DNA of 64,000 nucleotides from a virus (taxonomy: Duplodnaviria > Caudoviricetes): the IMG/VR virus record IMGVR_UViG_3300027804_002812, positions 96,001 through 160,000 of that record. The stretch is one strand, 5' to 3'. Positions 6,421 to 40,613 of the stretch are shown here, piece by piece (the stretch's first letter is position 1; each line of letters opens with the position of its first letter). Position numbers and translations under genes: made by a program. The notes under the pieces are model-generated. The model searched no databases, was not told the DNA's origin, and was given only the letters and a program-made list of their open reading frames with translations.

Positions 6421-6428
6421 TATTTATA
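6421..6428 (+). promoter_or_regulatory. TATTTATA motif
   Basis: 15 nt upstream of ATG 6444. A TATTTAT copy on the minus strand (6401-6407) serves the divergent gene. Confidence 0.6.
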
Positions 6429-9089: not shown

Positions 9090-10310
9090 ATGTCAAAAAT
9101 TAAAGTTTTAGTTGTCCCTTCTGACCGATCTGGTGTTGGTAAATTCCGTTCGGTCGATCCACACATTTTTCTTCAAAATCAATATCCCGATGAGTTTCAC
9201 GTAGACATTGTCTATGAACCACCATACGAGGATATGAATTTTTGGACTCAATACCAAATAGTTGCTTACCATAGAAGTATTGGATCTGATTTTGATAAGG
9301 CAAACAGGTTAATCCAAATGTTAAACTCTTTAGGAGTCGTAACCGTTTGCGATATTGACGATTATTGGATGCCAGGTAAAGAACATCCTATTCACGATAT
9401 CATTCGAGTTAATAAAATTAACGAAAAGATTGTTGCCAACCTTAAGGTCTCTAAATTTGTAACAACCACTACTGAAATATTCGCCGACGAAATACGGAAA
9501 TACAATAAAAACGTTATTGTATTTCCGAACGCCATTAATCCAAACGAAGCTCAATTCAAAGAGAAAACTGAAGAATCGGACAAAGTTAGAATTGGATGGT
9601 TAGGTGGTTCATCTCACTTACATGATATTCAATTATTAGATTCAGGGTTTTCCAAACTATTACATCTCAAAGATAAAGTACAATATGTATTGTGTGGGTT
9701 TGACACTAGAGGAACTGTAACTGAAATCAATGCCCAAACAGGTGAACAAACAAAAAGAAATATTTTGCCATCAGAGACTGTATGGGCAAGATATGAAGAA
9801 ATTTTCACACAAAATTATAAAATAGTTTCAGAAGGATACAAAAATCATCTTCTAAAATATAACCAAGAAGAATACCTTGGTGATAGTGGAGAATCGTATC
9901 TCCGAGTTTGGACAAAACCAGTTACAGGTTACGCTAAAAACTATTCTAAATTTGACGTTTCCTTGTCTCCTATCAAAAACACAATGTTCAATAGAATGAA
10001 ATCACAACTCAAAGTAATTGAGGCTGGTTTCTATAAAAAAGCATTAATTGCTTCAAACATCGGACCTTACACTATTGATTTGAAACATTGCTTGGATAAC
10101 GGAAATTTTGTAGATGGAAATGCGATTTTAGTTAATGAGGCTAGAAATCATGCGGATTGGGCAAAATTCATCGAAAAATTAGTTAAGAACCCAAATCTCA
10201 TTAAGGATATGGGTGAAAGGTTGTATGAAACAGTAAAAGACAAATATGACTTGAATAACGTCACTAAGGATAGAAAACAATTTTATATAGATATTGCCAA
10301 TAAATCATGA
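9090..10310 (+). CDS. glycosyltransferase (GT-B, GT4-like)
   Basis: DIDDYW, RIGWLGGSSHLHD, NRMKSQLKVIEAG, ALIAS motifs. Confidence 0.8.
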   Translation: MSKIKVLVVPSDRSGVGKFRSVDPHIFLQNQYPDEFHVDIVYEPPYEDMNFWTQYQIVAYHRSIGSDFDKANRLIQMLNSLGVVTVCDIDDYWMPGKEHPIHDIIRVNKINEKIVANLKVSKFVTTTTEIFADEIRKYNKNVIVFPNAINPNEAQFKEKTEESDKVRIGWLGGSSHLHDIQLLDSGFSKLLHLKDKVQYVLCGFDTRGTVTEINAQTGEQTKRNILPSETVWARYEEIFTQNYKIVSEGYKNHLLKYNQEEYLGDSGESYLRVWTKPVTGYAKNYSKFDVSLSPIKNTMFNRMKSQLKVIEAGFYKKALIASNIGPYTIDLKHCLDNGNFVDGNAILVNEARNHADWAKFIEKLVKNPNLIKDMGERLYETVKDKYDLNNVTKDRKQFYIDIANKS

Positions 10311-11008
10311 TAAACATACCTTTAGACAAACTACTTTTTATTGATATTGAAACAGTTGGAATTGAGTCCAATTGGGAAACATTGAGGAAAAACAGGCCTG
10401 AACTTTCATCTATTTTTATAAATTATCTTGATTGGTTTCAAAAAAGATTTCCTGAAGACTCAACATTATCTATTGATAGTATCTTCTATAACCGTTCTGC
10501 ATTAGTTCCCGAATTTGCAAAAATTGCTTGTGTAAGTGTTGCCTTTGTCACCGACAAAGGTGAGACAAAGATGCAATCATTTAGTAACGAAAATGAAAAA
10601 GATTTGTTACAAGAAGTTCAGAAACTTTTACGTAGGGTTGGAGAATTAGGATTTTTCCTTTGTGGTCACAATGTCAAAGGATTTGATATTCCTATGTTGG
10701 CAAAAAGAATGATTATTAATGGATTATTACCCCCCAAAATATTACCAGGTCATGACACTAAACCATGGGAAATTAAGGCATTAGATACCAAGGAACTTTG
10801 GCAATACGGTGGATATGGTACGATTGCATCATTAGAATTGATGTGCGTTTCTATGGGTGTCGAATCTTCAAAAAATATGGAGATAAAAGGAAATAAGGTA
10901 CATGAAGCGTATTGGATAAATAAAGACATCAAAGGTATAGTAGAATACTGTGAAAAAGATGTGTTGGTATTGATTGATGTCATAAAGAAAATTACAACAT
11001 TAGTATGA
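10307..11008 (+). CDS. PolB-like DEDDy 3'-5' exonuclease (stand-alone)
   Basis: ExoI FIDIET, ExoII GHNVKGFDIP, ExoIII YCEKDV. Confidence 0.85.
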   Translation: MINIPLDKLLFIDIETVGIESNWETLRKNRPELSSIFINYLDWFQKRFPEDSTLSIDSIFYNRSALVPEFAKIACVSVAFVTDKGETKMQSFSNENEKDLLQEVQKLLRRVGELGFFLCGHNVKGFDIPMLAKRMIINGLLPPKILPGHDTKPWEIKALDTKELWQYGGYGTIASLELMCVSMGVESSKNMEIKGNKVHEAYWINKDIKGIVEYCEKDVLVLIDVIKKITTLV

Positions 11009-11928
11009 AAGTTTTAGTTACTGGGTCTAATGGATTAGTTGGGTCACCATTCAAAGAATTATTAGGTGAAGGTCACATATATCATACTAGACAAGATGTT
11101 GATTTGACCGATGAAAAATTAACCAAAGAATATATTACCTATCATGTTAAAAATTCGGGAGTAGATACAATCATAAATTGTGCAGCAAAAGTTGGAGGGG
11201 TTCAAGCCAACATTATGGACAATGAAAACTTTTTTTTACAAAATTATATAATAAATAATAATGTTATAAATTCGGCATTCGAAAATAACATTAAAAATTT
11301 TGTAAATTTATCCTCCACTTGTATATTTCCTGATTCAGATGTAACATACCCTCTTACTCCAGACCAAATGGATTTAGGTGCCCCTCACCCATCAAATAGA
11401 GGATACGCATATTCTAAGAGGATTTCAGGTTATCAGACAAAAATATTCAGACAATTAACAGGAAATAATTGGTTTACCGTTGTTCCGGCTAATGTTTACG
11501 GACCACACGATAATTTCCATCCTGATTATAGCCATATAATTCCAGGAATTATTCAACGAGCATACAATTGTAAACACAAAAATGAAGAGTTCATTGTTTG
11601 GGGAGATGGGTCACCTTTAAGACAATTTATTCATTCTGAAGACCTTGCAAAAAATATTTTATGGGCAATCGATAATTGGAATAATGAAACTCCATTTATG
11701 GCAGTCAACGAACTCGAATATTCGGTTATGGACATTGTTAATATCGTTACAAAAAAATTTGAGATTTACACAGATAAAATAATTTTTGACGAAACAAAAC
11801 CAAGAGGACAATTCAAAAAAACTGCAACATCAGATGTCCCTAAAGATTATGAGTACATCAACATTGAACAAGGTATTAACGAAACCATTGATTGGTTTAT
11901 TAAAAATTATGAAATAGCAAGAAAATGA
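11005..11928 (+). CDS. fcl: GDP-L-fucose synthase-like epimerase/reductase (SDR)
   Basis: VTGSNGLVG, NCAAKVGG, SSTCIFP, GYAYSKR (YxxxK), NVYGPHDNF, WGDGSPLRQFIH. Confidence 0.85.
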   Translation: MKVLVTGSNGLVGSPFKELLGEGHIYHTRQDVDLTDEKLTKEYITYHVKNSGVDTIINCAAKVGGVQANIMDNENFFLQNYIINNNVINSAFENNIKNFVNLSSTCIFPDSDVTYPLTPDQMDLGAPHPSNRGYAYSKRISGYQTKIFRQLTGNNWFTVVPANVYGPHDNFHPDYSHIIPGIIQRAYNCKHKNEEFIVWGDGSPLRQFIHSEDLAKNILWAIDNWNNETPFMAVNELEYSVMDIVNIVTKKFEIYTDKIIFDETKPRGQFKKTATSDVPKDYEYINIEQGINETIDWFIKNYEIARK

Positions 11929-12539
11929 CAAACGAAAATTCAAATGATGCCGATATTTGGAAACAAATACAAGAAACATTTAACCAAATCAAACAAGACG
12001 CAGGAGTTGAACCTGAAGAAGACTACATGAAAGAATTGGAAAATATTTTGGGAATGTCTGTTGATGAAATGAATGAATCCCACATGATAATGATGAAAAC
12101 AAAATCATTAGGTGTAGAATTAGTTCATGAAGATGCAAAAGTTCCCTCATATGCGTATCCATCAGATTCAGGTTTTGATTTACGTTCAACTGTAGAAATA
12201 AACATACCTCCATTCGGTCGAGCACTAATTCCGACAGGTATTAAACTATCAATTCCTGAAGAGCATGAAATTCAAATTAGACCTAAAAGTGGACTAGCTA
12301 TCAATATGGGACTTACAGTCTTAAATACACCTGGTACAGTCGATTCAGGTTATGTCGGAGAAATTCAAGTTATTGTTTTCAACACCAACAATCATTCTGT
12401 TACAATTTCTAAAGGAATGAAAATTGCACAAGCGGTTTTATGTCCTGTAGTAAATGGTAAATACGTTGAGTTTGAATTGGTCGATAAAGTTGGTGATAAA
12501 GATAGGGGGAATAAAGGTTTTGGGAGTACTGGATTATGA
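11925..12539 (+). CDS. dut: trimeric dUTPase with N-terminal extension
   Basis: SGFDL, RPKSGLA, PGTVDSGYVGEI, RGNKGFGSTG motifs. Confidence 0.95.
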   Translation: MTNENSNDADIWKQIQETFNQIKQDAGVEPEEDYMKELENILGMSVDEMNESHMIMMKTKSLGVELVHEDAKVPSYAYPSDSGFDLRSTVEINIPPFGRALIPTGIKLSIPEEHEIQIRPKSGLAINMGLTVLNTPGTVDSGYVGEIQVIVFNTNNHSVTISKGMKIAQAVLCPVVNGKYVEFELVDKVGDKDRGNKGFGSTGL

Positions 12540-14161
12540 TAACCGTAGGATATTCAACTAGAGAAACTAAACCTGAATTTATTGAGTATCTCAAGAAAAG
12601 TTCAGGGTTCAAAAAACTTGAAGTTATTGAGAAAGTCAATAATGGGAAAAAATCCCTTGCCCAAGTTTATAACGAAATCTTATCTGAAGCAAAGACAGAT
12701 ATAGTTCTTCTTTGCCACGATGACATATATTTTGACACACCCGCTTGGTATAGCAAACTCCTTAAACATTTCGAAAAAACCGATTTCGGTATTATCGGAA
12801 TGGCGGGTACTACTTTAATGCCATCAGGAGGAATGTGGTGGGAGAATAGAAAAAGAATGGTTGGTATTGTTAATCATGAAAAAGATGGAAAAAAATGGGA
12901 ATCAAAATATGCCGATTCTTTAGGTAATACTGTTCATGAGACTGTTATTGTAGACGGATTATTTATTGCAGTACATAAGAAAAGAATAAAAAAACCATTC
13001 AATGAAGAGTTCAATGGGTTTCACTTTTATGACATTCCATTCTGTCTCGAAAATCATTTGGAAGGTGTAAAAGTTGGTGTTATCACTAATATTAGAATGA
13101 CTCACAAGTCAATTGGAGAAACTAATCAACAATGGGAAGAAAACCGTAAAATCTTTGAGGAAAAGTATAAATCACATCTACCACTTAAATTACTTCTCAA
13201 CCCAAATAAAAGACTTAAAGTTTTAATCAGTTGTTTGTTCTTTAGAACATTCACGGGTTCAGAATTATATGTTTATGAGTTAGCAAAGAACTTAATGAAA
13301 CTAAATTGTGAGGTCACAGTCTTATCTCAAATTGGTGGGCCATTAACGGAACTAGCAAAAAAACAAGGAATTAAATGTGTTCCATTCGAACAAGCACCAG
13401 GGTTCAAATTAGGTGATGGTAAGTGGGGAGTCCAAACTGAAAATGGGATACAGACATCACAACCAAACGTAATGTATCGTATAGGTACGGTAAATTTTGA
13501 TATTATTCATATGCAACATAAACCAGTTGCTGAAAGAATGGTTCAATTTTATCCTGAAATCGATAAGGTATATTCTATACACTCTGAAGTAATAGAATTG
13601 GAAGATCCAATCAAACACGAATCAATCAAAAAATACATTGCAATCAGGCCTGAAATTAAAGATCACATTGTTGATAAATTCGAAATCGACGAAAATATGA
13701 TTGAAGTAATATATAATCCAGTTGATAATGAAAAATTCAAATCCAAATCAGTAAAAGAAGAAAATTATGTATTATTTGTTGGGACGATAGATTATCTACG
13801 TAAAGAAACAATTATGGATTTGATTGACTATACTGCGGATAATGGTAAGGAACTTTGGTTAGTTGGAGAAGATAAATCAAATTATCTTCCGGCAATCTTA
13901 TCAAACTCCCATGTTAAACATTTTCCACCAACATGGAATGTGGAACCATATGTTCAAAAGTGTTCTGAAACTGCGGGTATTCAATTAGGCCGAACGACTA
14001 TAGAAGGATGGATGTGCGGAAAACCAAGTTGGATTTATAAGGTTGATTCGGGAGGGTTCATTCTCTCAAAAGAAAAATTTAATCCTCCAACAGACATAGA
14101 AAAATATTATTCAGTAAACGTCGCAACAAAAATAAAAGAAGAATATAAAAAAGTGTTATAA
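12536..14161 (+). CDS. bifunctional glycosyltransferase (N-terminal GT2-like, C-terminal GT4-like)
   Basis: LAQVYNE...LCHDDIYF...DGLFIAV...FHFYDIPF (Glyco_tranf_2_5-like), followed by a GT-B region (GSELYVYELAKNL...GRTTIEGWMCG). Confidence 0.8.
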   Translation: MITVGYSTRETKPEFIEYLKKSSGFKKLEVIEKVNNGKKSLAQVYNEILSEAKTDIVLLCHDDIYFDTPAWYSKLLKHFEKTDFGIIGMAGTTLMPSGGMWWENRKRMVGIVNHEKDGKKWESKYADSLGNTVHETVIVDGLFIAVHKKRIKKPFNEEFNGFHFYDIPFCLENHLEGVKVGVITNIRMTHKSIGETNQQWEENRKIFEEKYKSHLPLKLLLNPNKRLKVLISCLFFRTFTGSELYVYELAKNLMKLNCEVTVLSQIGGPLTELAKKQGIKCVPFEQAPGFKLGDGKWGVQTENGIQTSQPNVMYRIGTVNFDIIHMQHKPVAERMVQFYPEIDKVYSIHSEVIELEDPIKHESIKKYIAIRPEIKDHIVDKFEIDENMIEVIYNPVDNEKFKSKSVKEENYVLFVGTIDYLRKETIMDLIDYTADNGKELWLVGEDKSNYLPAILSNSHVKHFPPTWNVEPYVQKCSETAGIQLGRTTIEGWMCGKPSWIYKVDSGGFILSKEKFNPPTDIEKYYSVNVATKIKEEYKKVL

Positions 14162-14952
14162 TGGATAGAATTATTGATTACAAAAATTTATCAAGTAAAA
14201 TCCAAGAATGGATTTTATCCTATGTAGTTAAAAACAATATTACAACTTTAGTTGTGGGAGTTTCTGGTGGTATTGATTCTGCGGTTGTATCAACGTTATG
14301 TGCAGAAACAGGACTGCCTACTTTAGTTCTTAATTTACCATTAAACTCATCCCAAAAGAACACAGAATTATCTGACAAACATATTTCGTTCTTATGTTCA
14401 AAATATGATAATGTTCATGGTTATACTATAGATTTATCAAAAACATTTCAAGAATTCAAATCTAATGTACTTTTTGAAAAAGAATTCTATTCTGAATTAG
14501 GATTTGCAAACACTAAATCAAGATTACGTATGATGGCGTTGTATCAAATCGCATCCTCAAGAAATGGGATTGTTGTTGGTACTGGAAACAAAGTTGAAGA
14601 TTTTGGAGTCGGATTTTACACTAAGTATGGAGATGGTGGAGTTGATATCTCTCCTATCGCAGACTTATATAAAACTGAAGTTAGAAATTTAGGTCGACAT
14701 TTAGGGGTAATTACTGAAATCATCAATGCGGAGCCTACTGATGGATTATGGGAAGATAACCGAGTGGATGAAGTTCAAATTGGAGCAACCTATGAAGAAC
14801 TTGAATGGGCGATGGAAAGAGGTGTAGCTAAACAAAATTACAGTGAAAAAGAATACAAGATTATTGAAACTTTTTTAAGTTTTAATAAAAAAAATAAACA
14901 TAAAATGGTTTCTATACCAATTTTTGATTTGAAAGAAAACGAAATTATATGA
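14161..14952 (+). CDS. nadE: NH3-dependent NAD+ synthetase
   Basis: VSGGIDSAV (PP-loop), NTKSRLRM, GTGNKVE, YTKYGDGGVDISPIADLYKTEV, PTDGLW. Confidence 0.9.
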   Translation: MDRIIDYKNLSSKIQEWILSYVVKNNITTLVVGVSGGIDSAVVSTLCAETGLPTLVLNLPLNSSQKNTELSDKHISFLCSKYDNVHGYTIDLSKTFQEFKSNVLFEKEFYSELGFANTKSRLRMMALYQIASSRNGIVVGTGNKVEDFGVGFYTKYGDGGVDISPIADLYKTEVRNLGRHLGVITEIINAEPTDGLWEDNRVDEVQIGATYEELEWAMERGVAKQNYSEKEYKIIETFLSFNKKNKHKMVSIPIFDLKENEII

Positions 14953-16109
14953 AGATAGGTATCATAGGTGCCGGAAGATTAGGACTCACATTTGCACTAT
15001 TATGTGAAAAAGCAGGATATGATGTTATTGTATCAGATAAACGTGAGGATTATGTTTATAACTTAAATCATAGGATTTGTAACACTAATGAACCATTAAT
15101 TCAAAAAATGTTGTTTGAAGTTAATTACTTCAGTGCAACTACAAGTAATGTTGAAATTATTGAAAACTCTGATATTATATTTACCTTTGTCGCAACTCCA
15201 TCCACTACTGACGGAAGTTATAACACGTCAGCCGTTTTTGAGGTGGTAAATGATTTTTTTGCTGCGTCCAAATTAGAAATCCCTATTTTTAATAAAAAGT
15301 TTATTGTTGGTTGTACAACTAATCCTGGTGATGTGGAACAAATCCAAAATAAACTTTCAATGTTCAGCATTCAAGTTGCATATAATCCGGAATTTATTGC
15401 TCAAGGAGAAATTGTTAAAGGGATAGAACAATCAGATATAGTTTTAATTGGAACTGAATACCAAGAACTTGCAAATGAATTGATTCAAATATATGACAAA
15501 ATACAAACCACGCCAGTTAACGCACATGTCATGTCTCCAAAGGCTGCTGAAATTACAAAAATTGGTATTAATTGTTTTTTGACAACTAAAATTAGTTATG
15601 CCAATATGATGGGAGATATTTTGACAAAATCGAATTTGAGTAATGAAATTGATTCTGTATTAAATGCTGTTGGTGGTGATAGTCGTGTTGGAAAAAAATA
15701 TATGAAATATGGATTTGGATTTGGTGGGCCATGTTTACCAAGAGACAATCGAGCTTTGGGTCATTACGCCAATGAACTTGGGTTGAAATTAAATCTACCG
15801 CTTACAGTAGATGAATTTAACAAAGAGCATGCAGAATTTATTAAGAACTTTTACATGAATCAAAATCCAAACAAAAGTGTACCATTCGTTATGAACTACA
15901 TAACATACAAGAGAGGAACAGATATTTTGGAAGAATCACAACAATTCAAATTGTGTTTGGATTTATTAGAGGAAGGGTATTACGTTAATGTGATTGAAAT
16001 CGATCCAGTAATTAAACAACTTTCCGAGTTGAGTGAACAATTTGATAATAGATTAAAATTCTATAAACCGGGAACCTCTCCTGAAGGTTATGTAATCAAC
16101 TTACAATGA
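14949..16109 (+). CDS. ugd: UDP-glucose/GDP-mannose 6-dehydrogenase family
   Basis: IGIIGAGRLG, AYNPEFIAQG, AEITKIGIN, GFGGPCLPRD with the catalytic Cys. Confidence 0.85.
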   Translation: MKIGIIGAGRLGLTFALLCEKAGYDVIVSDKREDYVYNLNHRICNTNEPLIQKMLFEVNYFSATTSNVEIIENSDIIFTFVATPSTTDGSYNTSAVFEVVNDFFAASKLEIPIFNKKFIVGCTTNPGDVEQIQNKLSMFSIQVAYNPEFIAQGEIVKGIEQSDIVLIGTEYQELANELIQIYDKIQTTPVNAHVMSPKAAEITKIGINCFLTTKISYANMMGDILTKSNLSNEIDSVLNAVGGDSRVGKKYMKYGFGFGGPCLPRDNRALGHYANELGLKLNLPLTVDEFNKEHAEFIKNFYMNQNPNKSVPFVMNYITYKRGTDILEESQQFKLCLDLLEEGYYVNVIEIDPVIKQLSELSEQFDNRLKFYKPGTSPEGYVINLQ

Positions 16110-16834
16110 TAAATTTTGTCGTCTGTGTCTGGAACGCAGAAAAATATATAAAAAATTGTATCAGAACTTTGAAGTCCCAACAAGATAGGGATTTCAAAGT
16201 TTTTATCATTGATGATGTGTCTACAGACAATACTGTAGAAATAATTAAATCATTAATTATAGATGATAATAGATTCAATTTGGTGATTAATACGGAGAAA
16301 AAATTCAAACTAAAAAATTTAGATGAGATAATCCCAACATTTGATGATGATGACATTGTGATTGAATTGGATGGTGATGATTTTTTACTCAACTCAGACG
16401 TTGTTTCTGATATTCGTAAGATTTATTCTGAAGGGGATGTTTGGTTAACAAACGGTTCATTCATGTACTCTAGTGGTAACGAAGGTTTTTCAAGTAAATG
16501 TAATCCGGATACTATTCGTAAAGATGTTTTTAGATTTTCTCATTTAAGAACATGGAAAACATTCTTATGGAAAGCAATTCCAAAAGATTATCTCAGAGAT
16601 GATAATGGAGAATATTTCATATCGGCTGCCGATGTTGCTTACACATTCTCACTTTTAGAATTAGCGGGAGAAGAAAATTATAGATTTTTACCTAAACTAT
16701 ATTACGTTTATAATGAACAGTCTCCATATAATGACCACAAACCAGGAAGTGCGACTGGAGGGGGACATCGTGAACAGGAAAGATGTTCAAATATAATACG
16801 TAATAAACCAAAATTAAAAAAATTAATTAGATGA
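16106..16834 (+). CDS. glycosyltransferase family 2
   Basis: WNAEKYIKNCIRTL, IIDDVSTDNT, ELDGDDFL, HLRTWK. Confidence 0.85.
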   Translation: MINFVVCVWNAEKYIKNCIRTLKSQQDRDFKVFIIDDVSTDNTVEIIKSLIIDDNRFNLVINTEKKFKLKNLDEIIPTFDDDDIVIELDGDDFLLNSDVVSDIRKIYSEGDVWLTNGSFMYSSGNEGFSSKCNPDTIRKDVFRFSHLRTWKTFLWKAIPKDYLRDDNGEYFISAADVAYTFSLLELAGEENYRFLPKLYYVYNEQSPYNDHKPGSATGGGHREQERCSNIIRNKPKLKKLIR

Positions 16835-22282: not shown

Positions 22283-22283
22283 T

Positions 22284-23447
22284 ATGAAAAAATTTAACAT
22301 TCCAATTTTTAGATTAAAATTTGACTTCAAATCAAAATTAAAATTCCTTAAAGGTTCATGGGACATTTTATCTTCAGATAGACCATTGGGAGAATCAAAA
22401 TATACGAAAGAATTTGAAGAACGATTTGCTAAAATGAGTGATTCGAAATTTGCATTAGCATGTTCCAATGGCACCACTGCGATTGAATTAGCACTCAAAG
22501 CAATAGATGTAAAAGGAAAAAAAGTATTAATACCCTCTAACACCTTTTTTGCAACAAGTGTTGCGGTGACAAATGCTGGGGGTATAATCGAATTATTGGA
22601 TATGGAACCAGATTCATTTTCAATTGATTTGAAAGATTTGGAAAATAAAATCACTACAGAAATAGGAGCAGTTATTATTGTACACATCGGTGGGATTATC
22701 AGTCATGACATTACTAAAATTGCAAAAATTTGTAAGAAAAATCGAGTATCTTTAATTGAAGATGCGGCACATGCCCACTTTTCGTCAAAAGGTTCACATC
22801 GAGCCGGAACTATAGGTGATATTGGAACATTTTCTTTTTTCCCCACAAAAGTTATGACAACTGGTGAGGGAGGTATGATTACCACCAACAACAAAAAATA
22901 CTATGAAAAAATGAAGTCCTTAAAAAACTTCGGTAGAGATATTAATGATGGTGGAATTATTGTTAACCCCGAAGGTAATAATTTCAAAATTAATGAGTTT
23001 ACTTCATTATTGGGTTGTATCGAACTTGATAGAGTTTATGAAAGAATAGAACAAAGGTCTCAACTTTTAAGCCGATACCAAAAAAATTTAGAAAATACGA
23101 AATACAAAGTCCTTAAACAGAATGGTGAAGGTACTTGTGCGAATTATAAAGCAATTGTAATTACCCCAATGGATGGAGATTGGCTGAAAAAATATTGCAA
23201 AGAAAAAAATATAACATTGACTGGAGAAGTATATAAAATACCTGTTCATCACCAATCTCTATATAAAGCACAATTTACCTCTGTAAATTTGCCAAATACT
23301 GATTATTATTGTAAACATCACATATGTCCACCATTATATCCTGAATTAACAATGGATGAAGTAGATTATGTCTGTGATGTATTAAAACAAGCTTTAATTG
23401 ATTATGAAGAACAGAGTCGCAAAATTAACTCAAATACGAAAAATTGA
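22284..23447 (+). CDS. DegT/DnrJ/EryC1/StrS PLP-dependent aminotransferase
   Basis: SNGTTAIELAL, EDAAHA, SFFPTKVMTTGEGG (PLP Lys). Start taken at ATG 22284, right after the upstream stop. Confidence 0.92.
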   Translation: MKKFNIPIFRLKFDFKSKLKFLKGSWDILSSDRPLGESKYTKEFEERFAKMSDSKFALACSNGTTAIELALKAIDVKGKKVLIPSNTFFATSVAVTNAGGIIELLDMEPDSFSIDLKDLENKITTEIGAVIIVHIGGIISHDITKIAKICKKNRVSLIEDAAHAHFSSKGSHRAGTIGDIGTFSFFPTKVMTTGEGGMITTNNKKYYEKMKSLKNFGRDINDGGIIVNPEGNNFKINEFTSLLGCIELDRVYERIEQRSQLLSRYQKNLENTKYKVLKQNGEGTCANYKAIVITPMDGDWLKKYCKEKNITLTGEVYKIPVHHQSLYKAQFTSVNLPNTDYYCKHHICPPLYPELTMDEVDYVCDVLKQALIDYEEQSRKINSNTKN

Positions 23448-24432
23448 AATTTTTGAGGAAGAAATTCCTAAATTAAAAGAGGGTCAATTACTCGTAGCAA
23501 TGAAATCCGTCGGAATTTGTGGTTCTGACATGCATTATTTTAAGGAAGGAGGACTCGGATCTTTCAAAAATCCATTACCTATGTATATGGGGCACGAACC
23601 ATCAGGTGTTGTTGTAGATGCCAACGGGTCAAATAAATTTAGTGATGGAGATAGGGTTGCCGTCGAGCCAGGTATGCCATGTATAACTTCTTATTGGTCA
23701 TTAAAAGGAAAACATAATTTATGTGAAAAAGGAACTTTTATGGGGGCAAATTCTCAAGGAGCTTTCGCAGATTATGTTGTCGTTGAAGAATTACAACTTG
23801 TAAAAATTCCTGATTCTATGTCTTTTAATTTAGCGAGTTTACTTGAACCACTTGGAGTTTGTCTTCACACCGCAAATTTAATTGAACCAAAATTCACAGA
23901 ATCAGCAGCCATATTTGGTGCGGGGCCAATCGGATTATGTATGTTTTCTATTTTGAAAAAAATGGGTCTTAAAGATATATACATGATTGACAAACTACCT
24001 TATAGAGTAGATTTTGCTAAAAAATTCGGTGCAAAAGAATCTTTTTTATTGGCGGAGGATTACAATAAAAAAATTAAAGAATTAACGCACGGTATGGGGG
24101 CAACTTTAACTATCGATACTGGTGGCACAACAGAATCTATTGATGGATGTATCAATGTTGCTGCGGTAAATGGTAGGGTCGCTTTAATCGGAATACCTGA
24201 AGCAGATTTTGTTTCCTATAATCCACACAGAATGAGAACAAAAGAATTAACCATAAAGAACGTACGTAGATCTAACCAAACATTGGACGATTGTGTTGTA
24301 AATTATACTGGAGATAAAGAAATAGAAAAAATAATATCACATGAGTTTGATTTTGAAAACATTCAAAAAGCTTTTGATACTGTAGCGGATTACAAAGACG
24401 AGATTCTTAAATGTATTATAACAAATAACTAA
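23404..24432 (+). CDS. Zn-dependent (sorbitol/threonine-type) alcohol dehydrogenase
   Basis: GICGSDMH, GHEPSG, GDRV, FGAGPIG. The structural-Zn site has only two Cys (PCITSYWSLKGKHNLC). Confidence 0.88.
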   Translation: MKNRVAKLTQIRKIEIFEEEIPKLKEGQLLVAMKSVGICGSDMHYFKEGGLGSFKNPLPMYMGHEPSGVVVDANGSNKFSDGDRVAVEPGMPCITSYWSLKGKHNLCEKGTFMGANSQGAFADYVVVEELQLVKIPDSMSFNLASLLEPLGVCLHTANLIEPKFTESAAIFGAGPIGLCMFSILKKMGLKDIYMIDKLPYRVDFAKKFGAKESFLLAEDYNKKIKELTHGMGATLTIDTGGTTESIDGCINVAAVNGRVALIGIPEADFVSYNPHRMRTKELTIKNVRRSNQTLDDCVVNYTGDKEIEKIISHEFDFENIQKAFDTVADYKDEILKCIITNN

Positions 24433-24435
24433 TTT

Positions 24436-25158
24436 ATGAGAAAAATATTAAGCATAGATGGTTTTAGATATAAAACTGTCGATAGATTAAATGAAATAAA
24501 AAATACTTTGAGATGGAACTCAAAGTATTTTGATGTAATTCATGTTTGGTGCCAAGAGCCTGCTGATTATGAGGCGTTCGTAGAATTTGATTCTGAAAAA
24601 ATTATTATCCATAATCTTAATCGTTCACATGGGATTTCAATGAAGGATCTTTATGATTTTACAAATGAAGTTTCTTCTGATGAAGATTATAAGTTTTTTG
24701 CAAATTCGGATACAACATTTGGTGATGAAATTTCAAATTATAACTGTGAAGAGAATTGGTTTGTATTGTTTACTAATCGATCGATGAGAGATCCAAAAAT
24801 TGGACAAAATCCCCAAGCATATCAATTATCTGAAAATGATGGATTAGTGTTATTCAACAGAGACGGAATTCTTGACCCGAGTTGGTTTCAAGATGATGAG
24901 AGTATAAAGAGTTATGCAATCAATGCTTATTGTGGTTGGTCATGGAAAACTAAGAAACCCATACAAGAAGGAGATTGTTATTTAGGAACTCAAGGAGGAG
25001 AAAATTGTTTCCTTACCAAAATTTTTGAGGCGAATTTCGATCCTAAAGCTGCAGTACTCAAATACCCAACATACCATAATCATAGGACCAGTGAAAAAAC
25101 CGATAGATTTAATACTCGGGTTGGAGGTTCATCATTATCTTATTCAAACTACTTATGA
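24436..25158 (+). CDS. hypothetical protein, possibly GT-A fold
   Basis: FFANSDTT and YHNH motifs within the glycosylation cluster. Confidence 0.45.
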   Translation: MRKILSIDGFRYKTVDRLNEIKNTLRWNSKYFDVIHVWCQEPADYEAFVEFDSEKIIIHNLNRSHGISMKDLYDFTNEVSSDEDYKFFANSDTTFGDEISNYNCEENWFVLFTNRSMRDPKIGQNPQAYQLSENDGLVLFNRDGILDPSWFQDDESIKSYAINAYCGWSWKTKKPIQEGDCYLGTQGGENCFLTKIFEANFDPKAAVLKYPTYHNHRTSEKTDRFNTRVGGSSLSYSNYL

Positions 25159-26090
25159 AAAAATTTATAATCACAACAACAATCAATAGTCCAACAGAAG
25201 CGACTATAAAATTCTGTAAAATTGCAGATAAAAAAGATTTTCAATTTGTTATCGTAGGAGATACTAAAACTCCACATGATGAATATCATAATTTGGAACA
25301 ACAATACGAGAATGTAATTTATCTCACACCAGAAATACAATCTGAATTGTATCCTGAGTTGTCCGAAATTATCGGATGGAAGACCATTCAAAGACGTAAT
25401 ATTGGTTTTGTCTACGCATATGAAAATGGTGCTGAAATTGTAGCCACCGTGGATGACGATAATATACCTTATGAATTCTGGGGTGACAACATATTACTGG
25501 ACCAAGAAATTGAAGTGGATGAATATGAAAACTTGTCATGTCCTTACTTTGATGCAATTTCAACCACAGAACATAATGACTTATGGCATAGAGGATTTCC
25601 AATTGAATATCTACAAGTAAAAAATGACATCGAATATAAAGGAAAAACTAAAATCACACCTTTAGTTCAAGCTGAGTTTTGGGATGGAGATCCTGATATA
25701 GATGCAATTTGTAGACTAAGTAAAAAACCTATCGTCAAATTCAAATCTTTTGACCCTTTCACAACAAAACAATTAACACCATTCAACTCACAGAATACAT
25801 TCCTACACAGAAGTATCCTTAAGTATTATTCAGTATTTCCATATACCGGAAGAATGGATGACATTTGGGGGGCATATGTAATGCAACACTATTTTCCAAA
25901 TTCAGTAATTTTTACAAAAGCTTCTGTTTATCAAGCAAGAAATCCACAAGATCTTGTAAAAAATTTGGAGAACGAAGTGATTGGATACAGAGGTACATTA
26001 AACCTTATTGACAACATCAAGAATTTTAGGGATTTACTTCCTGCTAAAACTGTCGAATATTTTGACATATATCAAAAATACTTTAACTAA
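25155..26090 (+). CDS. STELLO/RGP-like (DUF288/GT75-related) protein
   Basis: IITTTINSPT, VIVGDTKTP, RRNIGFVYAY...TVDDDN, DPDIDAI, RMDDIWGAY. Confidence 0.75.
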   Translation: MKKFIITTTINSPTEATIKFCKIADKKDFQFVIVGDTKTPHDEYHNLEQQYENVIYLTPEIQSELYPELSEIIGWKTIQRRNIGFVYAYENGAEIVATVDDDNIPYEFWGDNILLDQEIEVDEYENLSCPYFDAISTTEHNDLWHRGFPIEYLQVKNDIEYKGKTKITPLVQAEFWDGDPDIDAICRLSKKPIVKFKSFDPFTTKQLTPFNSQNTFLHRSILKYYSVFPYTGRMDDIWGAYVMQHYFPNSVIFTKASVYQARNPQDLVKNLENEVIGYRGTLNLIDNIKNFRDLLPAKTVEYFDIYQKYFN

Positions 26091-27184
26091 TGAAAAAAAT
26101 TGTAGTATTAGGTGGAGGAGGGTTCATAGGTGGACACCTTGCCAAAAGATTAAAAGAAGAAGGAAATCATGTACGAGTATGTGATATCAAGAAACATGAA
26201 TACTTCTTTCAAGACGAGTTTTGTCATGAATTTATTTTAGGAGATTTAACTGACCCCAAAGTTGTAGAATTAGTAATCGAAGAGGGTGTTGATGAAGTTT
26301 ATCAACTCGCGGCAGATATGGGTGGTGCTTTGTATATTTTCACAGGTGAACACGATGCGGATGTTATGTACAATTCCGCAACTATCAATCTTAATGTCGC
26401 TCGTGAAGCAGTTAAGAAAAAGGTAGGCAAACTATTTTACTCATCTTCGGCATGTATGTATCCTGAACACAATCAGTTGGATCCTGAAAATCCAAACTGT
26501 GAAGAATCTTCGGCGTATCCTGCTAATCCTGATTCAGAGTATGGTTGGGAAAAATTATTCTCTGAAAGATTATATTTGGCGTTTAGTAGAAACTATAAAT
26601 TGAATGTTAGAATTGCAAGATTCCACAACATATTCGGACCTCAGGGAACGTGGAATGGAGGTAGAGAGAAATCACCAGCGGCAATGTGTAGAAAGGCTGT
26701 CGAAACTGAAAATGGTGGGGAAATCGAAGTTTGGGGTAATGGATTACAAACTCGTTCATTTTTGTATGTTGACGAGTGTGTTGAAGCTGTTCTTAAATTA
26801 ATGGAATCTGATTTCGAAGGTCCTGTAAACATTGGTAGTGAAGAAATGGTAACAATTAACCAATTGGCTAAAATGGCAATAGAAATTGCAGAAAAAGATA
26901 TAACTATTAAAAATATTGAGGGAGAGGAATTTGTGCAGAAGTACGGTTTCAAATGTCCTTTAGGTGTTAAAGGGAGAAACTCTGATAATAAGCTATATCG
27001 AGAAAAAATTGGATGGGAGGTAAGTCAACCTCTATCAGTAGGATTACGGAAAACCTATCAATGGATTAAGTCTCAAGTTGATAAAAAACAAAATGAAACC
27101 GTATGGATTTATGAAAGTCCTGATGGGGGAGATACAGTTTATAAAAGAGAGTTAGGAAATACAGATAGACATAAAGTTAAATAA
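26090..27184 (+). CDS. GDP-mannose 3,5-epimerase-like SDR
   Basis: GGGGFIG, QLAADMGG, YSSSACMYP, YGWEK, RFHNIFGPQGTWNGGREKSPAAMCRK, closely matching GME. Confidence 0.85.
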   Translation: MKKIVVLGGGGFIGGHLAKRLKEEGNHVRVCDIKKHEYFFQDEFCHEFILGDLTDPKVVELVIEEGVDEVYQLAADMGGALYIFTGEHDADVMYNSATINLNVAREAVKKKVGKLFYSSSACMYPEHNQLDPENPNCEESSAYPANPDSEYGWEKLFSERLYLAFSRNYKLNVRIARFHNIFGPQGTWNGGREKSPAAMCRKAVETENGGEIEVWGNGLQTRSFLYVDECVEAVLKLMESDFEGPVNIGSEEMVTINQLAKMAIEIAEKDITIKNIEGEEFVQKYGFKCPLGVKGRNSDNKLYREKIGWEVSQPLSVGLRKTYQWIKSQVDKKQNETVWIYESPDGGDTVYKRELGNTDRHKVK

Positions 27185-27190
27185 CTAAAC

Positions 27191-27925
27191 ATGGGTAGAT
27201 TAACAAAACCAAAACCAACGGCAACTTTACCTAGTGAAGAGGCTCCGATTAAAAATAAAAAACAACAAATCTGTTCAATAATTAAACGAAAAACTAAAGA
27301 AAAGTTTTTATCCGAAAGTCAAAAAGAATATTACGAAAAGTTAGTTAATAACCAAATTAGTATTTGTTCAGGACCTGCTGGTGTAGGAAAAAGTTATATT
27401 GCAATGAAATGTGCAGTTGATTTATTATCCGACCCAAATACTCCTTACGAAAAAATTATCATTGTAAGACCTGCCGTTGAAGCTGAAGAAAAATTAGGTA
27501 GTTTACCAGGCGGTGTTGAAGAAAAACTTGACCCATATATTTTTCCTTCATACTATCTATTAAATAAAATAATCGGTAAAGATACTAGAGAAAAATTAAA
27601 AGAAATCGAGGCAATAGAAGTATTCGCTTTAGCATATATGAGAGGAATGAATATTGATAATTCGATTTTGATTTTTGAAGAAGCTCAAAACTCAACCCCA
27701 AGTCAAATGAAATTGTTACTAACTAGAATTGGGTTCAACTCTAAGTTTTTTATATCAGGCGATTTAGAACAATTTGATAGACACAAAGATAAAACACAAA
27801 CAGGTCTTTGGGATGCTTTGAAAAAATTTCAAAATATGGGGGACATCGGTGTTTTTGAATTCAAATCTACAGATATTGTTAGAAATCCATTAATATCTAA
27901 AATATTAGAAAAGTACGAAGAATGA
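27191..27925 (+). CDS. phoH: PhoH-like ATPase
   Basis: GPAGVGKS, RPAVEAEEKLGSLPG, AYMRG, FEEAQN, SGDLEQ.D, DIVRNPL. Confidence 0.95.
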   Translation: MGRLTKPKPTATLPSEEAPIKNKKQQICSIIKRKTKEKFLSESQKEYYEKLVNNQISICSGPAGVGKSYIAMKCAVDLLSDPNTPYEKIIIVRPAVEAEEKLGSLPGGVEEKLDPYIFPSYYLLNKIIGKDTREKLKEIEAIEVFALAYMRGMNIDNSILIFEEAQNSTPSQMKLLLTRIGFNSKFFISGDLEQFDRHKDKTQTGLWDALKKFQNMGDIGVFEFKSTDIVRNPLISKILEKYEE

Positions 27926-28521
27926 GAATAGGGATTGAACTGAATGGGGTATTAAGAGACACTCTAAAAAAAATACAACAAGAATACGAAAAATGGTACC
28001 TAAATAATCCATTCAAAGAAGAAAATGAAGAAGATAACTTTGAATACGAAGTTTTATCTGATTTAACTTCATTAGACATTTTGAAACACTTGAAATTCAA
28101 AAATGAGGAGGAATTGTACGATTTCCTTTATAAAGAACATACGATGGAAATTTTTGGGCATGCCGGATCTGTAGAACCTTCAGGTCTTTTAGACTTGAAT
28201 GAATTTTACTTGGATATGAGAGAGTCACACGATATTATCATTGTCTCAGATGAGATTGGTAAATCAAAACCCGCATCGTTATTTTTTATTTCGAAATTCG
28301 GATGCTTAGTTGAATCCGTTAAATTTTATAGCGAAAGTACAATTAATTCTCTGTGGGATTCCGTAGACATTTTACTTACCGCAAATCCTAAACTATTATT
28401 AAACCACCCACAAAACAAAATTGTAATTAAATTCAACACGAGTTATAATAATGATGTTGAATCTAATTTTCATATTTCAAGTCTTAAGGAGTTAAAAACA
28501 AAAATACAAGAAATAATATGA
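27922..28521 (+). CDS. HAD/5'(3')-deoxyribonucleotidase-like protein with degenerate motif I
   Basis: MRIGIELNGVLRD in place of IGIDxDGVL, plus FNTSYN near the C-terminus. Confidence 0.6.
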   Translation: MRIGIELNGVLRDTLKKIQQEYEKWYLNNPFKEENEEDNFEYEVLSDLTSLDILKHLKFKNEEELYDFLYKEHTMEIFGHAGSVEPSGLLDLNEFYLDMRESHDIIIVSDEIGKSKPASLFFISKFGCLVESVKFYSESTINSLWDSVDILLTANPKLLLNHPQNKIVIKFNTSYNNDVESNFHISSLKELKTKIQEII

Positions 28522-28802
28522 TACAGATATTTGGCGAAAATTATTTTATCGACTTAGATGAAATTGAAAACTATCTCGATATGAATCAAACTGACGACAG
28601 TGAAGATTCAGAGTCAGGAGTAACAGAAACAAAAATTAATATTATAAAATTCGAAATGGTCAAAATGTTATTAGACACTATTTTGAACGAACAAGAAATT
28701 GTTGACGAAAAACTTGGAATGAAATCTAATGCACAAGTAAGTATCCCATTTAGATTAGCATTCAATAGTTTATTAAATAAAAAACTTATCAATCATTATT
28801 AA
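28518..28802 (+). CDS. hypothetical phage protein
   Basis: 94-aa ORF coupled to its neighbours. Confidence 0.75.
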   Translation: MIQIFGENYFIDLDEIENYLDMNQTDDSEDSESGVTETKINIIKFEMVKMLLDTILNEQEIVDEKLGMKSNAQVSIPFRLAFNSLLNKKLINHY

Positions 28803-28803
28803 T

Positions 28804-29856
28804 ATGGAAAACCAATTTCAAGAAAAAGTAAAACAGTCCATTAAGATTTTAAGAGACAAAGAAGCCAGAATATATTTTTTAGTCCAAGATACTAAAGGTA
28901 ACGCTAAGGCTTCAGTAAGGCTCATATATCAAATGGCAAAAACATTAAAAGATAATGGATTTAATCCAATTATACTTCATGAAAAGGCTGATTATGCAGG
29001 TGTTGTTGCATGGTTAGATGAAGAGTACATGTCAATACCTCACAGAGCAATTGAAGGACAAAATTTAGAAATCTCACCAGAAGATTTTTTAGTTATTCCT
29101 GAAATTTTTGGATATGTAATGGACCAAGTAAAACAACTTCCTTGTGCCAAAATTGTTTTGACACAACAATATGCCCACATGTTAGAAACTTTACAACCAG
29201 GTCAAACATGGAACCAATTTGGGTTTTTGAAATGTATCACAACCTCAAGTAAACAGAAAGAATATATTGAAAGGGTCATGAGACAAATTTCTTTCGACAT
29301 CATTGACCCACTCATTAGTGAAGAGTTTACTCCTAAATCAAGTCCGGCAATGCCCATCATAGGAGTTCATGCAAAAGAACAGAGTGATGCGATTAATTTA
29401 ATTAAGACCTTCTATTTGAAATTTCCACAATATAGATGGTTCACGTTTAGAGACTTAAGAGGGTTGTCAGAAAAGGAATTTGCGAATTCTTTGAGAGATT
29501 GTTTTTTGAGTGTTTGGATTGACGACCATAGTGGTTTTGGTACGTTCCCACTTGAATCTATGAAATCAAATGTTCCTGTGATTGGAAAAGTTCCAAACTT
29601 GTCACCTGATTGGATGAGTGAAGAAAATGGTATTTGGGTTACAGACCAAACTTTATTACCTGATTTGGTTGCAGACTATGCTCAAAATTGGTTAGAAGAC
29701 AATATTGACCCACAAATTTTTGAAAAAATGAAGGAGACCGTTGAAAGATATACGGATAAACAAAAGTTTGAATCAACAGTAGTTTCTTTATTCGAAGGGT
29801 ATTTGACTACAAGAGCAGATTCATTCGAAAACCAAATTTCCAAAACAGAAGAATAA
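28804..29856 (+). CDS. putative glycosyltransferase (GT-B)
   Basis: GFGTFPLESMKSNVPVIG resembles the GT4 donor-binding motif. Also DFLVIPE. Confidence 0.7.
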   Translation: MENQFQEKVKQSIKILRDKEARIYFLVQDTKGNAKASVRLIYQMAKTLKDNGFNPIILHEKADYAGVVAWLDEEYMSIPHRAIEGQNLEISPEDFLVIPEIFGYVMDQVKQLPCAKIVLTQQYAHMLETLQPGQTWNQFGFLKCITTSSKQKEYIERVMRQISFDIIDPLISEEFTPKSSPAMPIIGVHAKEQSDAINLIKTFYLKFPQYRWFTFRDLRGLSEKEFANSLRDCFLSVWIDDHSGFGTFPLESMKSNVPVIGKVPNLSPDWMSEENGIWVTDQTLLPDLVADYAQNWLEDNIDPQIFEKMKETVERYTDKQKFESTVVSLFEGYLTTRADSFENQISKTEE

Positions 29857-29857
29857 T

Positions 29858-30664
29858 ATGAATAATACATTATCACTATCAGTAATACTACCTATAAAAT
29901 CCTCTAAAGCAAAAGATTTCGATGAGTATTTCGAAAAGGCAATTTTATCTCTTAAAAATCAACAAGTAGGATTTGAAGAATTAGTAATTGTTCATTCACA
30001 AGAACAATCCCTTATTGACTTATTGAACTCATATGATTTTGGGGACTTGAATGTAACAAAATTATTGTGGGACAAAGAACCAAATTACGCTAGTCAAGTA
30101 AACTTTGGTATTAAGAATGCAAAAGGGACTTGGATTTCTCTTTTTGAATTTGATGATGAATATTCATCAATATGGTTCAAAAATGTTAAGAAATATGTTG
30201 AATCATTTCCTGATGTTCAAATGTTCTTACCTGTTGTGGTAGAAACGGATGAGAAGGGATTGTTTGCAGGTTTCACAAATGAAGCAACATTCGCAGCTAA
30301 TTTCTCTCAAGAAATGGGTATCTTGACAAATGATACTTTACAAGAATATCAAAACTTCCAAACCGCAGGTTCTGTAATCAAAAAATCTGTTATCGAAGAT
30401 TTCGGAGGTTTCAAACCATCAATCAAACTAACTTTCATTTATGAGTTTTTATTAAGATTGACTTATAACTCCGTTACAGTTATGACAATCCCAAGACTTG
30501 GTTACAAACACGTAAATCTTAGAGAAGGTTCTATTTTTTGGAACTACAAATTCGGTGATAGTAAAATGATTGAGGATGAAGTAAAGTTTTGGATTCAAAC
30601 CGCAAAAAGAGAATATTTTTTCACGGACGACAGATCCATAAAATATCAATCTGAAAATGCTTAA
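29858..30664 (+). CDS. glycosyltransferase family 2-like
   Basis: LSVILPI, NFGIKNAKGTWISLFEFDDEY, YEFLLRL. Confidence 0.75.
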   Translation: MNNTLSLSVILPIKSSKAKDFDEYFEKAILSLKNQQVGFEELVIVHSQEQSLIDLLNSYDFGDLNVTKLLWDKEPNYASQVNFGIKNAKGTWISLFEFDDEYSSIWFKNVKKYVESFPDVQMFLPVVVETDEKGLFAGFTNEATFAANFSQEMGILTNDTLQEYQNFQTAGSVIKKSVIEDFGGFKPSIKLTFIYEFLLRLTYNSVTVMTIPRLGYKHVNLREGSIFWNYKFGDSKMIEDEVKFWIQTAKREYFFTDDRSIKYQSENA

Positions 30665-40584: not shown

Positions 40585-40598
40585 AATATACAATTTAT

Positions 40599-40606
40599 TA
40601 TAAATA
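40599..40606 (-). promoter_or_regulatory. TATTTATA motif
   Basis: 14 nt upstream of ATG 40584, just after the MCP terminator. Confidence 0.6.
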
Positions 40607-40613
40607 TCAGGAT

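Follow-up and report, generated by a model that had tools for sequence, protein, structure and literature searches.

A 21-kb Block of Predicted Soluble Glycan-Synthesis Genes in a T4-like Phage Shares a Homologous Core with Cyanophage Sugar-Gene Clusters

Gene Content and Organization of the Block

A block of glycan-synthesis genes occupies positions 9090–30664 of the stretch of phage DNA analyzed here. This stretch, referred to as the window, is 64,000 nucleotides long and corresponds to bases 96001–160000 of a 326,291-bp IMG/VR virus record (IMGVR_UViG_3300027804_002812) that is rated complete by CheckV; positions are those of the window unless given as genome positions. Every open reading frame (ORF) of the block lies on the + strand, in a run of ~21 kb, and the gaps between neighboring ORFs range from −50 to +6 nt within 9090–31410, with many 4-nt overlaps. 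A preliminary description of the window, made from the sequence alone, had recognized this single, tightly packed co-directional run, and the reading holds for all block genes. A search with the methyltransferase encoded at 19525 retrieved 14 related viral contigs, in which nearly all of the block genes, including those for dUTPase, NadE and PhoH, are found in the same order at 55–93% amino acid identity.

Six glycosyltransferases (GTs) of the block were identified by profile search. The first, a GT-B fold protein of 406 aa (9090–10310), matches the PHROG family phrog_7162, annotated as "glycosyltransferase" (E 1e-44), and weakly matches Glyco_trans_1_4; it is 66–85% identical across the 14 related contigs. 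The second is a two-domain GT of 541 aa (12536–14161) that joins an N-terminal GT2_5 domain (PF13712, E 3e-30) to a C-terminal GT4 domain (PF13439, E 2e-10). The remaining four are a GT2 enzyme (16106–16834; PF00535, E 1.5e-16), a member of the alpha-1,2-fucosyltransferase family GT11 (16831–17640; PF01531, E 1e-23), a member of the alpha-1,3-fucosyltransferase family GT10 (17628–18446; PF00852, E 5e-11) and, at the 3′ end of the block, a second GT2 enzyme (29858–30664; PF00535, E 1.5e-6, above cutoff). Three more proteins are GT-like by protein-language-model neighbors only and are treated as leads: a GT-A-like protein with no Pfam match (20823–21653; Atlas features 0.99 to viral GT2/GT7C clusters), a STELLO/RGP-like putative GT (25155–26090; Atlas features 0.99 to viral clusters carrying PF03385/PF03214) and a putative GT-B enzyme of the GT1/GT4 type (28804–29856; Atlas features 0.98–1.0 to PF00534/PF13692 clusters). 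The preliminary description had counted about ten GT-like genes, which the six profile matches and three leads broadly bear out, but its "GT9-like" label was reproduced by no tool.

Both of the GDP-sugar epimerases named in that description are confirmed. One is a GDP-L-fucose synthase of the Fcl/GMER type (11005–11928; PDB 4e5y, E 2.5e-61; NF047922, E 1e-54, below cutoff), which has an ortholog in none of the 14 related contigs, and the other is a GDP-mannose 3′,5′-epimerase (GME; 26090–27184) matching the Arabidopsis enzyme (PDB 2c59, E 4e-96). Profile searches also recover the nucleoside-diphosphate (NDP)-sugar dehydrogenase, acetyltransferase, aminotransferase, second dehydrogenase and two methyltransferases that had been proposed. 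These are an NDP-sugar 6-dehydrogenase resembling UDP-glucose dehydrogenase (UGDH; 14949–16109; TIGR03026, 203 bits, above cutoff), a sugar N-acetyltransferase of the NeuD/PglB/VioB family (21650–22282; TIGR03570, 170 bits, above cutoff), a DegT/PseC-type sugar aminotransferase with an uncertain TTG start (22245–23447; PF01041, E 9e-86), and a Zn-dependent, threonine-dehydrogenase-like medium-chain dehydrogenase (23398–24432; PF08240/PF00107; NF003808, E 2e-55, below cutoff) that is 81–91% identical in relatives. The two methyltransferases lie within 19525–20823, the gene at 19525 encoding a class I SAM-dependent enzyme (PF08241/PF13847) and that at 20170 an FkbM enzyme (PF05050/TIGR01444).

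The block is interspersed with non-glycan genes that are absent from the preliminary description. They encode a PolB-type 3′-5′ exonuclease-like protein that is conserved in relatives (10307–11008; PF10108, E 2e-13), a dUTPase (11925–12539; PF00692, E 2e-27), the NAD+ synthase NadE (14161–14952; PF02540, E 3e-48) and, within 27191–28802, PhoH (27191; PF02562, E 3e-62), a protein with a weak NT5C-like match (27922) and a 94-aa ORF. Two small conserved ORFs lie within 18439–19541, of which the first (18439, 234 aa) has no family match and the second (19140) is a DUF6165 protein (PF19662, E 7e-11). A variable ORF of 240 aa (24436–25158), also without a family match, has orthologs in 3 of the 14 related contigs. 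PDB sequence searches with the ORFs at 18439, 24436 and 30664 gave no match, nor did PHROG searches with most of the unannotated ORFs.

Soluble Enzymes and Sugar Supply

A Kyte-Doolittle scan of the block revealed no transmembrane (TM) segment; the only flagged hydropathy stretch, residues 30–48 of the NAD synthase, falls within the Pfam match and is not read as membrane. Across the whole 326-kb genome there is no ORF with more than four predicted TM segments, and the PF02397 initiating transferase was not found in a whole-genome search, so that the features expected of a Wzx/Wzy- or ABC-dependent O-antigen or capsule locus are missing. By these sequence criteria, genes for a flippase, polymerase, ABC permease or lipid carrier are absent genome-wide, and the proposal that the window holds soluble enzymes only, without export or lipid-carrier genes, extends to the entire genome.

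The cluster had also been called self-contained, which is an overstatement. No sugar-1-phosphate nucleotidylyltransferase was found in the genome, and its sole GMD-like gene is far from the block, at 322.7 kb, and scores below cutoff. For its primary NDP-sugars the phage must therefore depend on the host.

Homology with Cyanophage Clusters

[quoted passage not shown] In both papers, modification of the host surface or of DNA was put forward as a hypothesis. Homologs of the GT10 encoded in the block were found at 35–45% identity in 19 phage records, for the most part those of large cyanomyoviruses of the T4 type together with three huge uncultured phages, and homologs of the GME at 53–58% identity in 37 cyanophage or marine virus records. 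A tblastn comparison with the S-SCSM2R cluster gave 56% identity for GME, 43% for GT10, 48% for NadE, 51% for UGDH and 31–33% for GT11, the last against three cyanophage GT11 genes. As judged from these sequence matches, the core of the block (GME, GT10, NadE, UGDH and GT11) is homologous to the LPS/CWSM clusters that large T4-like cyanophages carry.

In S-SCSM2R and S-SSM7, the annotated cluster comprises an epimerase, GT10, NAD synthase, UGDH and GT11 genes along with further GTs, and the annotations of S-SSM7 place the same core genes in the same order. A further cluster gene is a methyltransferase in S-SSM7 and a hypothetical gene in S-SCSM2R. In the S-T4 cluster, epimerase, GT10, methyltransferase and GT11-type genes are annotated, and NadE or UGDH is not. 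NadE is probably a functional part of the sugar module, since it adjoins the NAD-consuming dehydrogenase in both lineages. The GME orthologs of S-SSM7, S-T4, S-SM2, S-CAM9 and other phages are annotated as "UDP-glucose 4-epimerase" or as generic epimerases. Based on their similarity to solved GDP-mannose 3,5-epimerases, these cyanophage proteins are probably GDP-L-galactose-forming enzymes.

The GT60 Module and the Ser/Thr-Rich Proteins

Just before the start of the window, a separate module on the − strand (genome 91264–95869) encodes a GT60, a GT25, a 293-aa ORF and an HtrL-type protein of 558 aa. The GT60 polypeptide-GlcNAc-transferase gene (genome 94550–95869, −; PF11397, E 1e-66, 226 bits against a cutoff of 21) lies directly downstream of genes for Thr-Pro (TP)-rich proteins. 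Enzymes of this family in Trypanosoma cruzi make GlcNAc-alpha-O-Thr on mucin-like proteins (PMC9472816). Here, the PF11397 domain is combined with Thr-rich putative acceptor tracts, as would be expected of mucin-type initiation by a GT60. The module and three to five Ser/Thr-rich ORFs are kept in all three of the related contigs that reach that far. Because the GT60 gene abuts TP-rich genes and has a homolog in phage XacN1, in which virion glycoproteins have been detected, this phage very probably glycosylates proteins.

The preliminary description had listed five Thr/Ser-rich repeat proteins in the window, and all five are present, four with TP tracts and one with a collagen-like G-T/S-S repeat; all are encoded on the − strand. 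A Thr/Pro-rich protein (2–895), 334 aa in full and extending past the window start, has a Ser plus Thr fraction of 0.42–0.43 and the motif TATTTAT upstream. By sequence composition, 979–1542 encodes a small TP-tract protein and 3956–6391 a protein of 811 aa in which a conserved N-terminal module of 620 aa is followed by a TP tract of ~170 aa. Between these two lies the gene for the collagen-like (G-T/S-S)n fiber protein (1544–3928; PF01391, E 7e-23). A PDB sequence search with the C-terminal domain of this protein gave no match, and a homolog search with its N-terminus retrieved 8 proteins only. The fifth protein (54091–55338; TATTTAT at −21) is TP-rich and has a small Cys-containing domain in duplicate; its gene lies next to unannotated ORFs that are upstream of those for the terminase, portal and capsid. 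The block begins 2.7 kb from the Ser/Thr-rich genes at the window start, on the opposite strand and with five unrelated ORFs in between.

Among the best 120 of more than 1100 metagenomic relatives of the 811-aa protein, the N-terminal 620 aa are 80–98% conserved. The relatives are 663–1415 aa long, and many carry a distal C-terminal LamG (Laminin_G_3) domain after the TP tract. By analogy, the family would have a conserved anchor and a swappable tip, an architecture typical of receptor-binding fibers. An AlphaFold2 model of the N-terminal 625 residues, built from 16 sequences at 80–98% identity, had a mean pLDDT of 25.8 and gave no usable fold.

The oriented, promoter-like motif TATTTAT is found 11–27 nt upstream of 84 of 378 ORFs, compared with 29 for the reverse-complement control, with sites in the window at, for example, 6421–6428, 31419, 35633, 44097, 48481 and 55352. 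The portal, protease and scaffold-like genes all have it upstream, as do six of seven Ser/Thr-rich ORFs, the exception being the small ORF at 979–1542. The T4 late motif TATAAATA was also considered as the motif of this lineage and is enriched, but it is TATTTAT that is truly oriented; this motif differs from that of T4 and is a candidate late promoter of this lineage.

A second glycan island, island 1 (genome 566–27000, −), encodes two DegT proteins, a DUF5672 protein, a GDSL enzyme, an NDP-sugar dehydrogenase, a GT25, a radical-SAM protein, a GT2_4 and two fusions of a eukaryote-like GT7 (beta4-GalT-type) with a LamG lectin domain. It adjoins the gene for a Gly/Ser/Thr fiber of 1706 aa, 51% of which is Ser/Thr. 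The GT60 module and island 1 are directly adjacent to Ser/Thr-rich genes. Profile searches identify at least 14 GTs genome-wide, to which the block contributes 6, the GT60 module 3 and island 1 another 4, with a single one at 241.9 kb; for comparison, a count of 13 GTs has been reported as possibly the highest in any marine phage (PMC12801897).

Co-occurrence of Tracts, GT60 and the Block Core

The distribution of the repeat tracts was scored in 17 genomes using a DNA pattern for eight alternating Thr codons, (Thr-x)8. The present genome, which has both a GT60 and the GT10/GME core, contains 190 matches at seven places, all on the strand of the Ser/Thr-rich genes. XacN1, Xoo-sp13 and CM1 have a GT60 and no GT10/GME match in the phage collection, and contain 122, 64 and 3 matches, respectively. 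No match was found in any of seven genomes with the core and without GT60 (S-SCSM2R, S-T4, S-SSM7, S-SM2, S-SRM01, LR756501 and LR756504) or in any of six genomes with neither (LR756508, Mel-JY01, immuto, Kaldavass, XbC2 and S-RIM2). Tracts are therefore present in 4/4 genomes with GT60 and 0/13 without (Fisher p = 4e-4, uncorrected for relatedness, with roughly two to three independent lineages represented), compared with 1/8 core-bearing and 3/9 core-less genomes (p = 0.58). The collagen-like G-T/S-S type of repeat is also found in Mel-JY01, which has no GT10 or GT60 match in the phage collection.

The preliminary description had tied the 21-kb block to the TP and GTS repeat proteins and had suggested that their phylogenomic co-occurrence be examined. 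This comparison found the core without repeat tracts in seven genomes, which is largely the outcome that the description itself had set against its proposal, and a specific link is not supported, as block and tracts separate in both directions. The pattern suggests instead that the Thr/Pro-rich proteins are tied to the neighboring GT60 module. The presence of a GT60 in XacN1 without a GT10/GME match shows that the GT60 module and the block are separable. In XacN1, no Ser/Thr-rich ORF lies within 12 kb of the GT60, and adjacency of GT60 and substrate is therefore not universal, while the co-occurrence at the level of the genome holds.

Lineage and Genomic Setting

The window encodes a gp20 portal, a T4-type large terminase (TerL) and a prohead protease, as well as a gp23-type major capsid protein (MCP; 40664–42454, −; PF07068, E 4e-72), identifying a T4-like myovirus. 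An OmpA-domain protein (39472–40650, −) is encoded directly next to the MCP gene. Relatives of the capsid protein are encoded on more than 597 IMG/VR stretches, the best 80 of them at 80–96% identity, and the lineage is therefore abundant in the environment. In deposited phage genomes, the closest MCPs are 42–45% identical and belong to an uncultured 484-kb phage, Microcystis phage Mel-JY01 and Flavobacterium phage immuto. Neither psbA nor other photosystem families are among the Pfam matches of the scanned window ORFs. Membership in the moraphage lineage was considered but is not supported by the parts of PMC12619734 consulted.

GC content is level across the window (~0.30–0.39). Together with the conserved synteny this rules out a recent-island origin of the block, and the synteny across 14 contigs indicates that the block is a stable part of the genome of this lineage. 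A megablast search with the block found no match in isolated phages. An Rfam scan of the window gave no match, including none to a wcaG motif such as that annotated upstream of the S-SCSM2R cluster, and sigma-70 promoter and terminator scans over 6000–40000 showed neither to be enriched relative to shuffled sequences. Elsewhere in the window are genes for a small WYL-domain protein (8030–8410, +) and a ClpB-type double-AAA+ chaperone (58213–60225, +).

Proposed Function and Alternative Explanations

It is quite possible, if somewhat short of probable, that the block directs lipid-independent assembly of a glycan on protein acceptors supplied by the phage, most likely virion proteins. As an operon-like set of soluble enzymes, it would work in the cytoplasm of the infected cell without a lipid carrier. 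Judging from the enzyme families, the inputs would be host GDP-mannose, UDP-glucose and UDP-HexNAc. GME would convert GDP-mannose to GDP-L-galactose and, in this genome only, Fcl would lead to GDP-L-fucose. UGDH would oxidize UDP-glucose to a UDP-uronic acid, with NadE replenishing NAD+, and the DegT aminotransferase and NeuD-type acetyltransferase would form an N-acetylated amino sugar, for which the Zn-dehydrogenase may supply a keto intermediate. About nine GTs would then assemble the sugars. The GT10 and GT11 "fucosyl" transferases probably use GDP-L-galactose as their real donor, because GME is conserved and none of the 14 related contigs has an Fcl ortholog. Two methyltransferases would cap the glycan. 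The L-galactose/fucose, N-acetylated amino sugar and methylation of the preliminary description agree with the enzymes found.

The acceptor would be supplied by the phage and most likely consist of virion proteins exposed at the surface. For the present phage, extension of O-GlcNAc primers made by the GT60 on Thr residues of the TP tracts would be the likeliest route; in the cyanophages, the acceptor would have to be something other than GT60-primed TP tracts. The core is shared at 31–56% identity by cyanomyoviruses of unrelated hosts, which fits a phage-borne acceptor better than a strain-specific host glycan. Also in favor are the lack of membrane machinery, the synteny across the 14 contigs, the position of the GT60 module and island 1 beside Ser/Thr-rich genes, the co-occurrence of GT60 and tracts, the glycoprotein signals from XacN1 virions, and the TATTTAT motif that the Ser/Thr-rich genes have in common with the portal, protease and scaffold-like genes. 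A more far-reaching version, which we consider rather unlikely, is a three-part, eukaryote-like mucin system of the bacterial cytoplasm in which the GT60 primes Thr in the TP tracts of fiber proteins with GlcNAc, and the block and island 1 extend the primers by L-galactose/fucose, a uronic acid, an acetamido sugar and methyl caps into a virion glycocalyx. If this were true, the cyanophage "LPS genes" would also be virion-glycosylation systems and not genes for the host surface, because the block core is orthologous.

Several observations weigh against glycosylation of phage proteins by the block. The seven core-bearing genomes without tracts or GT60 indicate that the block is independent of the proposed substrates, and the GT60-bearing phages without a GT10 or GME match indicate that the substrates are independent of the block. 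TATTTAT precedes no gene inside 9090–30664, and the setting of the block is one of housekeeping genes of early type (dUTPase, PhoH and exonuclease). The collagen-like protein matches tail-fiber PHROGs mostly via its repeats. Both the membership of the Ser/Thr-rich proteins in the virion and the glycosylation of any virion protein of this phage are themselves predictions. Finally, soluble GTs lacking TM segments are also usual in the assembly of O-antigen and capsule on host undecaprenyl carriers, and the missing membrane genes are therefore compatible with use of the host machinery. Of the cytoplasmic O-glycosylation of virion proteins proposed in the preliminary description, the part resting on soluble enzymes is retained and gains from the GT60 evidence, and the link from block to repeat proteins is not supported.

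The principal rival is remodeling of the host envelope, a somewhat unlikely explanation in which the soluble GTs modify undecaprenyl-linked O-antigen, capsule or glycoprotein precursors of the host at the inner membrane face and host flippases export the products. The altered surface would block superinfection or the sticking of progeny to debris. Cyanophage LPS/CWSM clusters have classically been read in this way. Bacterial enzymes of families GT10, GT11 and GT25 typically act on LPS, the core is present in phages without mucin-like tracts, and the position of the block amid metabolic, early-type genes without TATTTAT is consistent with such a role. The core is also homologous to clusters that have been interpreted in this way in P-SSM2, S-SCSM1 and S-SCSM2R, although for these cyanophage clusters the idea was put forward as a hypothesis (PMC1079782, PMC12801897). 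Weighing on the other side, the genome lacks an initiating transferase, a flippase, a polymerase and any membrane component of the Gtr type, and phages with very different hosts have the core in common, even though the envelope acceptors of these hosts should not be the same. The same genome also carries hallmarks of protein glycosylation, namely the GT60 and the GT7-lectin fusions, beside Ser/Thr-rich proteins.

It is improbable that the block has no single product and consists of independent auxiliary genes and cassettes (L-galactose genes GME/GT10/GT11, amino-sugar, NAD and nucleotide genes) that are kept together only by genome architecture and act on different or redundant targets, among which could be host proteins or soluble glycans. 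The interspersed housekeeping genes would fit such an arrangement, as would the coming and going of Fcl and the 240-aa ORF in close relatives. In addition, only the five-gene core is common to the cyanophages, the amino-sugar genes, the GT2_5+GT4 fusion and the STELLO-like gene being unmatched in the S-SCSM2R region compared. Yet the gaps of at most 6 nt, the many 4-nt overlaps and the order kept across 14 contigs argue against this explanation, and the position of NadE beside the NAD-consuming UGDH in both lineages suggests functional coupling.

DNA hypermodification, an alternative raised in the preliminary description in which the GTs would build sugars on a hydroxylated base as in T4, in RB69/DLP3 or in the methyltransferase/TET/GT systems, with the dUTPase, exonuclease and NT5C-like proteins taking part, is very improbable: although T4-like phages do glycosylate their DNA with up to three sugars using their own NDP-sugar genes (PMC13326640) and nucleotide-metabolism genes are interleaved in the block, none of the known routes is supported, as the genome has no Tet/JBP dioxygenase (PF12851), there is no alpha/beta-GT family among the Pfam matches of the block proteins, at least nine GTs, two methyltransferases and an acetamido-sugar pathway go far beyond any known DNA glycan, and the sole thymidylate synthase homolog is canonical. 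This homolog (genome 183361–184419) shares 52% identity with E. coli ThyA but contains insertions of ~34 and ~27 aa and a smaller third. Its active site is fully canonical and retains L143, C146, D169 and N177, and by the criteria of PMC13326640 it is consequently neither a dCMP hydroxymethylase nor a D169N 5-hydroxy-dCMP (5hoC) synthase.

The role of the big sugar-gene clusters of large T4-like phages has been a question since 2005, and such phages are very abundant in marine and freshwater environments. In the genome described here, a cluster of this kind is found beside a protein-specific initiating enzyme, the GT60, and mucin-like fiber proteins. The finding that tracts follow the GT60 and not the GT10/GT11 core replaces one vague idea by two that can be tested. 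Glycosylation of virions, if real, would affect how hosts are recognized, how stable and sticky the particles are and how they are grazed, as well as the annotation of phage "auxiliary metabolic genes."

Comparison with Known Systems

The kind of system is already known, from the cyanophage LPS/CWSM clusters and from virion glycosylation, which has been shown in mycobacteriophages and indicated in XacN1. What is new is the size and composition of the block outside the cyanophages, the presence of the block, a GT60 mucin-type module and a third island together in one genome, and the comparative result separating the block from the GT60/tract module.

Chloroviruses and Mimivirus glycosylate their capsids or fibrils with their own soluble GTs and sugar-nucleotide enzymes, independently of the ER/Golgi and of lipid carriers. 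As in these viruses, aminotransferase, N-acetyltransferase, methyltransferase and fucose-type sugar functions are predicted to be virus-encoded here. The viruses belong to another realm and infect another domain of hosts, and the likeness is drawn as an analogy, not as membership in the same system. PBCV-1 is an example of virus-encoded glycosylation as cited in PMC5852040.

In mycobacteriophages, the structural operon itself contains 2–4 GT genes, and capsid and tail-tube subunits were shown to bear glycans at their C-termini (Freeman et al. 2023, as cited in PMC12619734). As far as that citing source describes them, the mycobacteriophages share with the present phage soluble, phage-encoded GTs, methyltransferases in some of their clusters, and a presumed cytoplasmic modification of virion structural proteins. 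They differ in that the 21-kb block lies outside the structural operon, has its own sugar-nucleotide tailoring and a merely predicted target, and belongs to an unrelated lineage.

XacN1 virions gave at least two glycoprotein signals (PMC5852040). The XacN1 genes ORF334–330 have counterparts in the same order here, namely the GT60 (46% identity), the 293-aa ORF (28.5%) and the HtrL-type gene (41%). Both phages also encode many (Thr-x)n tract proteins, which in XacN1 include ORFs 369, 370 and 372 just after the tail-sheath genes. Unlike the block genes, this XacN1-type GT60 module lies outside 9090–30664, and XacN1 has no GT10/GME match.

The closest relationship of the block is with the cyanophage LPS/CWSM clusters. 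Both are carried on a T4-like myovirus backbone and combine co-directional NDP-sugar epimerases with many soluble GTs. The adjacency of NadE and UGDH, the orthologous five-gene core and FkbM or other methyltransferases are likewise common to both, and export genes are reported for neither. The present phage may have a host that is not cyanobacterial, and its MCP is only 30–32% identical to cyanophage MCPs. Relative to the cyanophage clusters, the block additionally contains the DegT/NeuD/Zn-dehydrogenase amino-sugar set, the GT2_5+GT4 fusion, the STELLO-like gene and the GT-B genes, and relative to the cyanophages tested, the genome additionally contains the GT60 module and the mucin-like tract proteins.

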